Source: Coriobacteriales bacterium
GTDB taxonomy: Bacteria; Actinomycetota; Coriobacteriia; Coriobacteriales; QAMH01
NCBI GenBank assembly: GCA_051876075.1
Contig: JBJEHM010000059.1
Location: 1-55,048 of the forward strand
Reading direction: 5' to 3'
DNA length: 55,048 nucleotides
Shown: one piece after another, positions 33,687-40,918 of the stretch
Layout of the letters: every line of letters starts with the position of its first letter
How positions within the stretch are numbered: the stretch's first letter is position 1
Notes under the pieces: generated by a model
Seen by the model: only the letters and a program-made list of their open reading frames with translations
Databases searched by the model: none
What the model was told of the DNA's origin: nothing
Translations under genes and position numbers: made by a program

Positions 33687-34907
33687 ATGGAGTACCAACA
33701 GGCGCTCGAGGCGCTTGAGGGGGCCCTCAAGTTTGGGATAGACCCCAGCCTGGAGCCCATCAGGCAGATGTGTGCGGCCTTGGGCAACCCCCAGGAGAGC
33801 TACACCTGCGTGCAAGTGGCCGGCACCAACGGCAAGTCGAGTGTGAGCCGCATGACCGCCGCCCTGCTCGGCGCCTGCGGCCTCAAGACCGCCCTCTACA
33901 CCAGCCCGGAGTTGGTGCGCTACCCAGAGCGCATGGAGCTGTGCGGGCGTGTTGTGAGCGACCAGCGCTTTGCGGATGCCGTCGAGGCTGCCCTGGGTGC
34001 GGCGCAACGCCGCGGGATTCAGGCTACGGAGTTCGAGCTCCTCACAGCCGGGGCGCTGTGGCTCTTCGCTCAAGAGGGTGTTGAGGTGGCGGTGCTCGAG
34101 TGCGGCTTGGGAGGCCGCTGGGACGCTACGAGCGTGTGCTCGCCCCGGGTTGCCGTGATCACCGGCATCGCCTTGGACCACACGCATATCCTGGGGAACA
34201 CGCTCGAGGCCATCGCAGCGGAGAAGGCCGCCATCATCAAGCCGGGCTGCACCGCCGTGCTGGCACCGCAGCTGGCCGCCCGCCCTGTGTTCGAGCAGCG
34301 CATCTGCGAGGTCGGGGCGCATCTGCTTGAGGTGGACCCCGCTATGGGGGAGGAGCTCGCCCCCGCGCTCGCGCACATGCCCTCCTACCAGCAGGGCAAC
34401 GCCGCGGTTGCCTATACGGCCGCCCGCTCCCTGGTGGAGAGCCTCGGCCTGGAGGACGCGCGGCGCGCCCTGGTGTCCCTGCAGATACCCGGCCGCTTCG
34501 AGACCTTGAGGGAACGGCCCCTGCTCTTGATCGACGCGGCGCACAACCCCCAGAGCGCTCAGGTCCTGGCTCGCGAGGTGGAGTGCCGCTTTCCCCGTCT
34601 TGAGGAGCGCCCCGTCCTGCTCGTCGGCGTGTTGGCAGACAAGGACGTGGAGGGCGTGGTGGGTACCTTGGCTCCACTGTTCGAGCGCATCGTCTGCACA
34701 GCATCCAAGAGCCCCCGCTCCATCGCCGCAACCGAGCTCGCCGGGCTCGTTGCGCGCGCGAACCCCGCCGCCTCCGTGCAGGCAGTCCCCAGCATCCCAG
34801 AGGCCCTGCAGCTCCTGGCTGCCTGCGATGTGATCGCCTCCGGCTCCATCACCGTTGCGGGTGAGGTCAAGGGCTGCTGGCTGGACGGCTGCCCCAAGCC
34901 CGAGTAA
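33687..34907 (+). CDS. folC: Folylpolyglutamate synthase/dihydrofolate synthase
   Basis: VAGTNGK, YTSP, TEFE, ECGLGGRWDAT, DH..LG, EKAAIIK, PGRFE, DAAHN. Confidence 0.93.
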   Translation: MEYQQALEALEGALKFGIDPSLEPIRQMCAALGNPQESYTCVQVAGTNGKSSVSRMTAALLGACGLKTALYTSPELVRYPERMELCGRVVSDQRFADAVEAALGAAQRRGIQATEFELLTAGALWLFAQEGVEVAVLECGLGGRWDATSVCSPRVAVITGIALDHTHILGNTLEAIAAEKAAIIKPGCTAVLAPQLAARPVFEQRICEVGAHLLEVDPAMGEELAPALAHMPSYQQGNAAVAYTAARSLVESLGLEDARRALVSLQIPGRFETLRERPLLLIDAAHNPQSAQVLAREVECRFPRLEERPVLLVGVLADKDVEGVVGTLAPLFERIVCTASKSPRSIAATELAGLVARANPAASVQAVPSIPEALQLLAACDVIASGSITVAGEVKGCWLDGCPKPE

Positions 34908-35002
34908 TGCTGCCTCTTCCCGTTGCCCCGGCCATCCAGGGTGCTGCCGCGCTTGCGGTGCCGCTTCCCGTTTGCCTGTGCATCGGGTTTATACTTATCA
35001 GC

Positions 35003-35108
35003 TATGCCGAAAGCTCGGCATACGGTTTGTCCTTGCGACTCGGTCTGTTCCCGAGCCGCTTTTCTGGTAAGTCCCTCTCGGTTTGTTCCCGAGCACGGGC
35101 AGAAAGGA
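35003..35108 (+). promoter_or_regulatory. Structured thrS leader with two tRNA-Thr anticodon-like stem-loops (candidate autogenous translational operator)
   Basis: CTCGG-TCTGTTC-CCGAG (35039-35055) and CTCGG-TTTGTTC-CCGAG (35077-35093); TATACT -10 at 34990-34995; SD AAAGGA at 35103-35108. Confidence 0.65.
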
Positions 35109-35115
35109 TCGCACT

Positions 35116-37044
35116 ATGAGCACCATCACCGTCAACCTCCCGGACGGCTCCGTCAAGGAGCTCGAAGAGGGGGCAACCCTGGCAGACGTCGCAGCCTCCA
35201 TCGGCTCCGGCCTGGCCAAGGCATCCCTTGCAGGTAAGATCAACGGCCAGCTCGCAGACCTGAGCGCTCCCGTCAGCCAAGGCGACGCCATCGAGATCAT
35301 CACCAGCCGCTCCCCCGAGGGCCTCGACATCATGCGCCACAGCTGTGCTCACGTTATGGCAGAGGCAGTGCAGCTGCTCTTCCCAGGCGCGCAGATCGGC
35401 TTTGGCCCCCAGACCGAAGACGGCTTCTTCTATGACTTCGCGCTCTCGCGCACGGTGAGCAACGACGACTTCGAGGCCATCGAGGCCAAGATGGCAGAGA
35501 TCATCAAGAAGGACGAGCCCTTCGTCCGCGAGGTTGTCACGCGCGAGCAGGCCAAGGAGATCTTTGCCGATCAGCGCCTCAAGCTCGAGCACATCGACGA
35601 CTTCGACGCAGACACCACCATCACCATCTACCGCCACGGCAGCTTTGTCGACCTGTGCAGCGGCCCCCACGTCCCCAGCGCCGGCAAGATCGACGCCAAG
35701 GGCTTCAAGCTGATGAAGGTCTCCGGCGCCTACTGGAAGGGCGATGCAGAGCGCGAGCAGCTGCAGCGCATCTACGGCACCGCTTGGTTCAACAAGAAGG
35801 ACCTCAAGGCCTACCTGACCCGCCTGGAGGAGGCCGAGAAGCGCGACCATCGCAAGCTGGGCCGCGAGCTGGGCATCTACATGATGGACGAGTCCGCCGG
35901 CGTGGGCCTGCCCCTCTACCTCCCCAAGGGCGCGCGCGTCATCCGCCTCATGCAGGAGTGGCTGCGCAAGGAGCTCTACCGCCGCGGGTACGAGGAGGTC
36001 ATCACCCCGCACGTCTACAAGTCAGACGTCTGGAAGACCTCCGGCCACTACGGCTACTACAAGGAGAACATGTACTTCTTCAACATCAACGAGGGCACCG
36101 ACGAGGAGCCCCGCTTGCAGGAGTACGGCGTGAAGCCCATGAACTGCCCGGGCCACGTGATTCTCTACAAGAACGACATCCACTCCTACCGCGACCTGCC
36201 GGTGCGCTACTTCGAGTTCGGCACGGTGTACCGCCACGAGATGAGCGGCGCGGTGCACGGCCTGATGCGCGCCCGCGGCTTCACGCAGGACGACGCCCAT
36301 GTCTTCTGCACCCCCGAGCAGGTCGTCGACGAGGTCTGCGCGATCCTGGACACAGCGGACTTCATCATGAGCTCCTTCGGCTTCGTGTACGAGGCAGAGA
36401 TCTCCACCCGCCCGGAGAAGTCCATCGGCACCGATGACATGTGGGAGCTGGCAACGGACGCCCTGCGCCAGGCGCTCGACCGCCGCGGCCTGCCGTACGA
36501 GATCAACGAGGGCGACGGCGCCTTCTACGGCCCCAAGATCGACATCAAGGTCAAGGACGCCCTGGGCCGCACCTGGCAGTGCTCCACCATCCAGGTCGAC
36601 TTCAACTTGCCCGAGCGCTTTGACATGACCTACCGCACCGCAGACAACTCCGAGGCCCGCCCCTTCATGCTGCACCGCGCGCTCTTCGGCTCCATCGAGC
36701 GCTTCCTCGGCATCCTGATCGAGCATACCGCCGGTCACCTGCCCCTGTGGCTGTGCCCCGTCCAGTGCGCCATCGTCCCCATCGCAGACCGCCATCACGA
36801 CGCCGCCAAGGAGCTCAAGGCAAAGCTCGAGGCAGTGGGCGGCCGCGTGGAGATCTACGGCCAGAACGAGCCCATGCGCGTGAAGATCGCAAAGGCACAG
36901 CAGCAGAAGATTCCCTACATGCTCGTCTTGGGTGACCAGGAGATCGCCAATGGGCAGGTCTCTGTCCGCGAGCGCCATGAAGGCGACCTGGGCACCATGG
37001 CCGTCGAGGAGATCTGCAAGATCATCGAGGAGGCACAGGTTTAA
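35116..37044 (+). CDS. thrS: Threonine--tRNA ligase
   Basis: TGS domain, [49 protein letters not shown]. Confidence 0.98.
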
Positions 37045-37045
37045 C

Positions 37046-38311
37046 ATGACTCGTCCTATGAACATCGCGGAGAAGATCCTCGCAGCCCACGCGGGCCTCG
37101 ACGAGGTCGTTCCCGGCCAGCTCATCGAGTGTGACCTGGACCTGGTTCTGTCCAACGACGTCACCGCGCCGATCGCCATCGACGAGTGCAAGAAGATCAC
37201 CGACAAGGTCTGGGACGTCGACAAGGTCGTCATGGTCCCAGACCACTACACCCCCAACAAGGACATCAAGTCCGCCGAGCTCTCCAACCGCGTGCGCACG
37301 TTCGTGCGCGAGCAGGGGATCACGCACTACTGGGAGGTGGGCTGCGTGGGCGTCGAGCACGCGCTTCTCCCCGAGCAGGGCGTGTGCGTCCCCGGAGACC
37401 TGATCATTGGCGCAGACAGCCACACCTGTACCTACGGCGCCCTGGGCTGCTTTTCCACCGGCGTGGGCTCTACCGATGCCGGCGTGGGCCTGGCAACGGG
37501 CCGTGCCTGGTTCAAGGTGCCGGAAAGCATCAAGTTCGTCGTCGACGGGCAGCTGCAGCCCGGCGTTACCGGCAAGGACATCATCCTGCACATCATCGGC
37601 AAGATCGGCGTCGACGGAGCGCTCTACAAGGCCATGGAGTTCACCGGCAGCGCCATCCGCAACCTGAGCATGGAGGGCCGCCTCACCATATCGAACATGG
37701 CCATCGAGGCCGGTGGCAAGGCCGGCATCATCGAGGTCGACGACATCACCCGCGCCTACGTGCAGCCACGCGCCGAGCGCCCCTGGGTCGAGTATCATTC
37801 CGACCCCGATGCCGAGTATGCTCAGGTTATCGAGATTGCTGCTGAGGACATTCAGCCCACCGTGGCCCTGCCCAGCCTGCCCTCCAACACCAAGCCCGCC
37901 GCTGAGTGCCGTGACATCCAGATTGACCAGGTCGTTATCGGCTCGTGCACCAACGGCCGCATCGAGGACATGCGCCAAGCTGCAGCCGTGCTCAAGGGCC
38001 GCAAGGTCAACCCCAACGTGCGCTGCATCATCATCCCCGCAACGCAGCAGGTGGTGCGTCAGTGCATCCAGGAGGGCCTGAGCGAGATCTTCCTCGACGC
38101 CAACTGCGTCATCTCCGCACCCACCTGCGGCCCCTGCCTGGGCGGTCACATGGGTTGCCTCGCGGCGGGCGAGCGCGCCATCGCAACCACCAACCGCAAC
38201 TTCGTCGGGCGCATGGGCGACCCCACTTCCGAGGTCGTCTTGTCAAACCCGGCGGTTGCCGCCGCCTCTGCCGTCGCAGGCCACATCGCCCTGCCCGAGG
38301 ATCTGGACTAG
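37046..38311 (+). CDS. leuC: 3-isopropylmalate dehydratase large subunit (short LeuC/HacA-type)
   Basis: [36 protein letters not shown]; adjacent leuD/leuB. Confidence 0.9.
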
Positions 38312-40828: not shown

Positions 40829-40918
40829 GGACGGATGGCCGAGTGGTTGAAGGCAGCGGTCTTGAAAACCGCCGAGCGCGCGAGCGTTCCTGGGGTTCGA
40901 ATCCCTATCCGTCCGCCA
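40829..40918 (+). tRNA. tRNA-Ser(UGA)
   Basis: GGACGGA/TCCGTCC acceptor stem, GCGGT-CTTGAAA-ACCGC anticodon arm (TGA), long variable arm, GTTCGAATC T-loop, G discriminator + encoded CCA. Confidence 0.96.

Follow-up and report, generated by a model that had tools for sequence, protein, structure and literature searches.

A candidate threonyl-tRNA synthetase operator composed of tRNA-Thr anticodon-arm mimics in the thrS leader of Coriobacteriales

The window analyzed here covers positions 1 to 55,048 of contig JBJEHM010000059.1, from the genome of a gut bacterium of the Coriobacteriales, read along its forward strand. It carries thrS, the gene for threonine--tRNA ligase (ThrRS), on the + strand at 35116..37044, with an ATG start codon at 35116-35118 and a product of 642 amino acids that matches TIGR00418 with 701 bits against a cut-off of 384. 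Upstream lies folC (33687-34907; TIGR01499), and the hairpin stretch that concerns us, 35035-35100, sits between the two genes. The encoded ThrRS contains the Pfam domains TGS (PF02824), SAD (PF07973), class II core (PF00587) and the anticodon-binding HGTP_anticodon (PF03129), the protein domains needed for the mechanism considered below. Aligned along its full length with the E. coli enzyme, it shows 44% identity, and both have 642 residues.

The thrS leader contains two hairpins that resemble tRNA anticodon arms. An initial annotation, made from the letters of the window, had placed near-identical hairpins at 35039-35055 and 35077-35093, and both the sequence and ViennaRNA folds agree with it, including the two stem extensions that it described. 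The distal hairpin (35035..35059, + strand) reads GCG-A-CUCGG-[UCUGUUC]-CCGAG-C-CGC, where the inner part spans 35039-35055, the loop spans 35044-35050 and its UGU occupies 35046-35048; the stem is extended by GCG at 35035-35037, which pairs with CGC at 35057-35059. The proximal hairpin (35071..35100, + strand), which is also supported by an alignment of 67 units (A1), reads GUCC-CU-CUCGG-[UUUGUUC]-CCGAG-CAC-GGGC, with its inner part at 35077-35093, its loop at 35082-35088, its UGU at 35084-35086 and an extension in which GUCC (35071-35074) pairs with GGGC (35097-35100). Each hairpin therefore combines a 5-bp stem with a 7-nt loop that presents UGU, a Thr anticodon, at its three central positions. 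The Shine-Dalgarno (SD) sequence, AGAAAGGA, occupies 35101..35108 on the + strand, 7 nt 5′ of the ATG; the proximal outer stem ends at 35100, so that the second hairpin does abut the SD, as had been noted. The same arrangement is seen in relatives, where GAAAGGA is found 0-4 nt 3′ of the outer stem in nearly all of the 67 aligned units. Between the hairpins lies a linker, UUUUCUGGUAA (35060..35070, + strand), whose length and sequence differ among relatives. Its U-run, which is not conserved, gives the distal hairpin a terminator-like look. The folding energy of the leader is ordinary (z = -1.42 for 34990-35125 and -0.97 for 35001-35121).

The two inner hairpins are identical at 16 of their 17 positions, and within a lineage the two copies usually have a common stem sequence; both observations fit the proposal, already made in the initial annotation, that one hairpin arose by duplication of the other. 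The 17-mer is not a dispersed repeat, a finding that the initial annotation had named as refuting. Searched with at most two mismatches, the pattern CTCGGTYTGTTCCCGAG has two matches in the window, compared to 0.01 expected from 100 shuffles, and across the 1,707,677-base, 129-contig genome it matches solely at the two leader sites. A weaker third copy, CGG-UUUGUCC-UUG at 35023-35035, had also been proposed. Its letters are present in the sequence, but a hairpin there is not supported: only three pairs, including two G-U, would form the stem, no such hairpin appears in the folds, and the near relatives L005 and L009-L011 lack it.

The 5′ end of the leader is predicted from a putative thrS -10 box, TATACT (34990..34995, + strand), and the leader length of about 115 nt given previously rests on it. 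The box is kept in congeners, six of which (L004-L008 and L018) have TATAAT, TATACT or CATAAT at the equivalent place, and this conservation suggests that the hairpins are part of the transcript; a sigma-70 scan, on the other side, found no two-hexamer promoter at the thrS leader. At the predicted leader start, the folds contain a 5′-proximal stem-loop of 8 bp with an AAGC tetraloop (35003..35022, + strand), which is possibly a 5′ stabiliser. Leaders L004-L008 have a hairpin of other sequence at the equivalent position. A long-range pairing between 34993-35001 and 35064-35072, predicted in the fold of 34990-35125, was rejected: it includes bases 5′ of the putative start and, by eye, is absent from L004 and L005. 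Three pig-gut metatranscriptome runs from one study (X1-X3) contain only 4-8% of the sampled words, and their RNA contigs, which are 90-99% alike to the locus, belong to a relative. One of these contigs spans the end of folC into the leader and another has 168 more letters 5′ of 35035; because they run on 5′ of the predicted start, they are uninformative on the leader's 5′ end. Nor do these runs demonstrate transcription of the locus.

We now turn to the conservation of the hairpins. Upstream regions of thrS were taken from 30 related genomes and 80 named loci, and the leader counts, except where duplicates are stated to be kept, refer to 92 non-redundant Coriobacteriales leaders; one locus with thrS cut by a contig end (L086) and one with a 26-nt leader (L067) were dropped before any counting. 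The nearest records are metagenome-assembled genomes labelled Coriobacteriales, Coriobacteriaceae or Coriobacteriia, followed by Eggerthellaceae, among them Gordonibacter, Adlercreutzia, Eggerthella, Cryptobacterium, Denitrobacterium, Rubneribacter and Paraeggerthella. A perfect 5-bp/7-nt hairpin with any loop is found within the last 100 nt of 84/92 leaders, and at least one hairpin with GU at loop positions 4-5 is found in 74/92. The GU-loop hairpins account for 98 of the 243 hairpins in leaders, compared to 566 of the 10,297 (5.5%) in the rest of the loci, both strands counted, and the conservation of the loop G-U on which the initial annotation had staked its reading is thus borne out. Two GU-loop hairpins are present in 22 of the 92 leaders, one in 52 and none in 18; with only 22 two-hairpin leaders, a symmetric two-site mode is not general. 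Motif-less leaders also precede full-length ThrRS genes (for example L022, L027-L029, L050, L073, L083 and L085), and one of the 18, L031, has an SD-adjoining hairpin with the non-Thr loop GCGCUUG. When duplicates are kept, 12 of 107 leaders have an upstream hairpin of another kind, whose loop is YA(C/G)UCAANN.

The proximal loops show which of their positions are constrained. Across the 74 of them, numbered as in an anticodon loop, U is found at position 32 in 70, at position 33 in 65 (the other 9 have C) and at position 34 in 71 (two others have C and one has G), whereas positions 37-38 are free, giving the loop consensus U-Y-U-G-U-N-N. One leader, L020, has CGU in both loops. As the tRNA-Thr identity rule predicts, position 34 appears to be variable, like that of the Thr isoacceptors, with G35 and U36 fixed. 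The source genome's own tRNA-Thr genes have the anticodon loops CUUGUAA, UUGGUAA and CUCGUAA, the leader loops differ from their A37-A38 at positions 37-38, and the hairpin stems are unlike their anticodon stems.

The stems change in sequence while their pairing is kept. The proximal stem occurs in 16 different sequences among relatives, with the asymmetric loop retained, as expected of the covarying structure that had been proposed. Alignment A1, composed of 67 distinct proximal units, has G and U as its sole invariant columns and both-side changes at all five inner pairs and at three of the four outer pairs, with a covariation score of 0.774; shuffles score 0.229, and sliding the partner strand gives no more than 0.177. 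A1 was assembled by a regular expression demanding a perfect stem and GT, which makes its 100% pairing and its invariant G-U partly circular; the variety of pair types was not built in. It excludes L013 and L023, whose proximal stems are mismatched, as well as L099, and L027 was dropped as a chance match to the expression. Most of the stem covariation arises across families, and genomes that are related do not count as independent cases. Within the source organism's own family, RNAalifold gives both hairpins and the outer stem with little stem variation, and the distal hairpin is kept with changes from C-G to U-A. The proximal unit of this family can be written GUCCC-A-CYCGG-UUUGUNN-CCGRG-N3-4-GGGC-(A/G)GAAAGGA, and that of Eggerthellaceae (G)YGC-A-GGYGC-UUUGUNN-GCRCC-CG-GCRC, followed after 1-4 nt by GAAAGGA. 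The stem letters differ, but the two families have a common plan: an inner stem of 5 bp closes the 7-nt loop, and an outer stem of 3-4 bp, set off by an asymmetric internal loop, is followed by the SD.

A covariance model of the proximal unit plus SD, R1, was used to determine where else the element occurs. On the source genome it has a single strong match (49.6 bits, E 5e-10, 35068-35117), and the next best scores 17.6 bits. On the organism's own family it matches 27 of 33 genomes, once each; outside the source genome there are 26 matches, and all 18 that could be checked against thrS loci adjoin thrS. The six non-matching genomes comprise two in which thrS is cut by a contig end (G001 and G011), a low-GC variant seen by eye (G007, whose leader is L021) and three whose ThrRS is 44-49% identical with an alignment beginning at about residue 66 (G014, G017 and G020); the ThrRS start read in G017, the sole one read among these three, belongs to a short form. 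In a class sample of 151 genomes, R1 has matches in 22. One large family, f3, which we take to be Eggerthellaceae, is matched in 18 of its 24 genomes, and two other large families are matched in 0/30 and 0/13. Setting the source genome aside, all 20 strong matches of the class sample lie directly 5′ of thrS, which brings the checked matches of family and class to 38, every one of them next to thrS; the element is specific to this gene. Weak matches were taken as chance: those of L135, L136 and L137 (23-30 bits) are located within or ahead of genes for oxidoreductases and HypB-like proteins, and that of L139 (24.6 bits) is in G+C-rich DNA where, in the stretch read, no ATG-led gene follows directly.

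Beyond the class, the search of a 151-genome phylum sample returned only four Coriobacteriales (all f3), the source genome and one weak match. The thrS gene was located in 110 of 111 phylum genomes. From about 102 thrS matches outside Coriobacteriia, with four unpublished genomes left out, we chose 60, mostly those with alignments starting within the first 19 residues, and took 400 nt upstream of each. With filters off, R1 found nothing above 10.1 bits (E 0.6) in these 60 leaders; GU-loop hairpins make up 17 of their 268 hairpins (6.3%), and none of the 60 has a GU-loop hairpin adjoining the SD. Within the genomes searched, the element is confined to Coriobacteriales.

The form of the enzyme varies together with the leader. 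In six other Coriobacteriia, ThrRS is a short form whose start lies some 25 residues ahead of the editing domain and which lacks a full TGS domain, and in the leaders of these six genes neither the UGU hairpin nor an Rfam T-box was found. The coincidence is consistent with a requirement for the N-terminal domain in the mechanism and, just as well, with a distinct history of the gene.

By all of these observations, we consider it likely that the thrS leader of the source organism carries a translational operator that binds ThrRS and is composed of tRNA-Thr anticodon-arm mimics. By analogy, ThrRS probably represses translation of its own mRNA, in a manner close to that of E. coli. When ThrRS is in excess of its tRNA substrate, the homodimer would bind the hairpins through its anticodon-binding domains; the loops display the identity bases G35 and U36 at the anticodon positions. 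The bound enzyme, located next to the SD, would keep the 30S subunit off the mRNA, notably by means of its N-terminal domains, and uncharged tRNA-Thr would compete for ThrRS, relieving the repression. Such control would have to come from outside the mRNA: the relatives' alignment contains no conserved structure that pairs the SD, and an SD without conserved pairing needs a trans-acting factor.

The E. coli thrS operator is the closest known system. In the available text of three reviews (PMC11088916, PMC7373986 and PMC9976931), its domains II and IV are recognised by ThrRS as mimics of the anticodon arm, the bound enzyme blocks 30S binding, tRNA-Thr competes with the operator, and altering the anticodon-like triplet hands control to MetRS; one of them adds, in the text available, that the N-terminal region of ThrRS is needed for repression (PMC7373986). 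When we folded the E. coli K-12 leader, domain 2 read UUUGUA-U-GUGAUCU-[UUCGUGU]-GGGUCAC-CAC-UGCAAA and the loop of domain 4 was AUUUGUUG. Both elements lie in the thrS 5′ UTR close to the SD and AUG, and both have two hairpins with NGU loops (UUCGUGU and AUUUGUUG there, UCUGUUC and UUUGUUC here). The proximal hairpin has one build in both, in which an asymmetric internal loop joins the outer to the inner stem and a 7-nt loop caps the latter. Each leader has a single-stranded SD and precedes the gene of a four-domain enzyme; the loop of E. coli domain 2 is one base away from some Eggerthellaceae loops (UUUGUGU). The differences are also considerable. The inner stem has 7 bp there and 5 bp here, and the hairpin is about 10 nt from the SD there and 0-4 nt from it here. 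The two organisms belong to different phyla, with the element not found in the 60 thrS leaders from other Actinomycetota, and most relatives have a single hairpin (52 of the 92 leaders), while some have a different second hairpin. In E. coli the regulation by ThrRS is established, whereas here it is a candidate from sequence. With filters off, R1 scores at best 3.1 bits on the E. coli leader, and we therefore read the likeness as analogy and not as detectable homology.

Other synthetase genes offer looser parallels. In Firmicutes, thrS is regulated by T-boxes. The T-box of thrS and thrZ is likewise a cis-regulatory RNA in a Gram-positive thrS leader that couples expression to the status of tRNA-Thr, a coupling for which the present leader is a candidate. 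A T-box, however, binds the tRNA itself through the codon of its specifier loop, controls termination, is 200-300 nt long and matches Rfam, while the present leader carries an anticodon in its loops, has about 115 nt, matches no Rfam family and has no conserved terminator. The mRNAs of yeast AspRS and of other aminoacyl-tRNA synthetases, as described in the available text of PMC9976931 and PMC6542539, resemble it in that the enzyme reduces its own production by binding to a mimic of the anticodon loop within the mRNA that encodes it; they differ in being eukaryotic, in using enzyme-specific N-terminal extensions, in acting at other steps of expression and in lacking SD adjacency.

The hairpins could instead be regulatory sites of a different kind, and we weighed five such explanations against the proposed ThrRS operator. 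The hairpins might be the site of another RNA-binding protein, or an element for RNA stability or processing, that ThrRS does not recognise. The evidence is compatible with another binding partner: positions 37-38 and the stems depart from those of tRNA-Thr, and the 5′ hairpin at 35003-35022 resembles an ordinary stabiliser. A stability element, however, would not require that a 7-nt loop keep G-U unchanged where the anticodon would lie, nor would it explain why the element is restricted to one gene per genome or why that gene is thrS; and we know of no other regulator with a UUUGU-loop site. We consider this explanation unlikely. More improbable still is that the leader forms a cis-acting anti-SD switch or thermometer, in which UCCU at 35030-35033 pairs with AGGA at 35105-35108 and encloses both hairpins. 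The minimum free energy and centroid folds of 35001-35121 do pair 35030-35033 with the SD, and the GUCCUUG stretch is kept in L004, but the switch is seen only in this species and L004, and the anti-SD is absent from L006-L011 and from all Eggerthellaceae leaders. Moreover, the SD is unpaired when 34990-35125 is folded, the z of -0.97 is no better than that of shuffles, and the switch leaves the conserved loops unexplained.

The remaining three explanations place control at transcription or in the sensing of tRNA. A terminator scan flags 35039-35055 plus CCGCTTTTCT, so that the distal hairpin and UUUUCU could form an intrinsic terminator and the leader a transcription attenuator. The U-run is nevertheless missing in L004 (TTCACAGG), L006 (CCTGTATG), L007 and L009-L011, all of which keep the hairpin, and there is no antiterminator pairing, no leader peptide and no Thr leader in the Rfam scan, which makes attenuation highly improbable. 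We give equally little credence to the CTCGG-N7-CCGAG inverted repeats as DNA operators for a dimeric transcription factor, even though they are perfect 5+5 palindromes arranged in tandem 3′ of the putative -10 box. Their half-sites change freely yet stay complementary, in 16 stem versions, and the conserved part is the non-palindromic, strand-specific spacer TTTGT; covarying stems combined with a conserved asymmetric spacer are the signature of an RNA hairpin and not of a protein-DNA site. Least credible of all is a degenerate T-box (RF00230) or another tRNA-sensing riboswitch, which the regulation of Firmicutes thrS brings to mind. The loops contain the anticodon UGU and not the Thr codon ACN, which rules out pairing with the anticodon of tRNA-Thr, and the leader of about 115 nt has neither the T-box sequence nor a terminator/antiterminator pair. 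A scan of the window's leader with Rfam 15 at E up to 10 found no family, and thus no T-box and no Thr_leader, in accord with the initial annotation, and leader families were not found at the ten relatives' loci at E up to 0.1. The matches at those ten loci were only long palindromes elsewhere that fit miRNA models below gathering scores. At the 13 motif-less thrS loci, Rfam had no match at gathering scores.

Returning to the proposed ThrRS operator, the available records contain no earlier description of it. Rfam 15 was found to hold no model of the E. coli thrS operator, and absence from Rfam consequently says little about prior description. A search of openly available full-text literature found no thrS operator or leader motif for Actinobacteria or Coriobacteriia. 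In the main text of two motif-discovery papers (PMC5737381 and PMC8040213), whose supplementary lists may differ, the terms thrS, threon*, Coriobacter* and anticodon are absent.

The absence of R1 matches from the 60 other Actinomycetota leaders and from the E. coli leader fits the independent evolution that had been suggested at the outset, and the element appears, from these comparisons, to be an invention of Coriobacteriales, separate from the E. coli operator. On balance we favor, with some reserve, the broader reading that Coriobacteriales evolved ThrRS anticodon-arm mimicry a second time, in a modular manner and tied to the full-length, TGS-bearing enzyme. In that reading, which we hold no more firmly for its details, the modular forms would be two duplicated mimics, a single mimic, or a mimic together with the unrelated YA(C/G)UCAANN hairpin. 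What appears to be new is the probable use of the E. coli principle in another phylum, by an element with a distinct architecture and apparently a separate origin.

The E. coli thrS operator is a classic case of molecular mimicry in translational control, and in the available text of the reviews PMC11088916, PMC7373986 and PMC9976931 it is the only bacterial ThrRS case. The candidate described here also fills a gap, as the regulation of thrS in Actinomycetota is undescribed in the literature searched. The relatives' records carry the genus names Eggerthella, Gordonibacter and Adlercreutzia; these genera include cultured species, and the idea is consequently open to ordinary biochemistry. Their natural variants are ready-made mutants for studying recognition, differing in hairpin number (one or two), in the loop triplet (UGU or CGU) and in the stem (16 versions), and if the operator is real, they would form a natural series for how many mimic domains a dimeric synthetase needs. 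A second operator, evolved independently in a Gram-positive phylum, would indicate that mimicry of the anticodon arm is an accessible and recurrent means of sensing an excess of synthetase, and the textbook E. coli case would then be one instance of a recurrent solution.

The predicted 5′ end of the window's thrS mRNA carries a stem-loop with an 8-bp stem and an AAGC tetraloop (35003-35022); in congeners the equivalent position is also occupied by a hairpin, but its sequence differs. The window's stem-loop may act as a 5′ stabiliser. Further downstream, both the minimum free energy and the centroid folds predict that a UCCU stretch (35030-35033) pairs with the AGGA of the Shine-Dalgarno (SD) sequence (35105-35108), a pairing that would enclose both of the anticodon-like hairpins with UGU loops. 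The UCCU stretch is retained only in L004, a congener of the window's organism.

Beyond thrS, the next gene is leuC, whose listed open reading frame (36932-38311) overlaps the end of thrS. The leuC profile match begins at residue 43 of this frame, and the true start therefore probably lies near 37058. A tRNA-Ser(UGA) gene is found at 40829-40918. In two of the related thrS loci, we also observed long, near-perfect palindromes downstream of thrS (L016, 4312-4404; L060, 3470-3549). These matched several miRNA models with 45-50 bits, under the gathering scores of those models, and are probably terminators or repeats.

One related locus, L031 from genome G026, has a GGACGC-GCGCUUG-GCGUCC hairpin immediately 5′ of the thrS SD sequence. 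It occupies the place of the UGU hairpin in its relatives, its GCGCUUG loop lacks a Thr anticodon, and the ThrRS encoded in this genome shares only 57% identity with that of the window.

Six thrS loci from other Coriobacteriia (L140-L145) encode a short ThrRS of about 585-590 amino acids without a full TGS domain. In two of them, L140 and L142, the leader is conserved over about 150 nt; it ends in a terminator-like GC hairpin followed by TTTTTC and has no Rfam match at gathering scores. This leader may be an undescribed attenuator of short-form thrS.

We also observed a further conserved hairpin in Eggerthellaceae thrS leaders, with covarying stems of 5-7 bp and a 9-nt loop, YA(C/G)UCAANN; the anticodon-like hairpin follows about 25 nt downstream of it. 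The YA(C/G)UCAANN hairpin is present in 12 of 107 thrS leaders, duplicates included, and these 12 are L054, L077, L078, L080, L084, L102, L104-L107, L110 and L112. All 12 leaders contain a single UGU hairpin, and the YA(C/G)UCAANN hairpin may serve as an alternative second operator domain.
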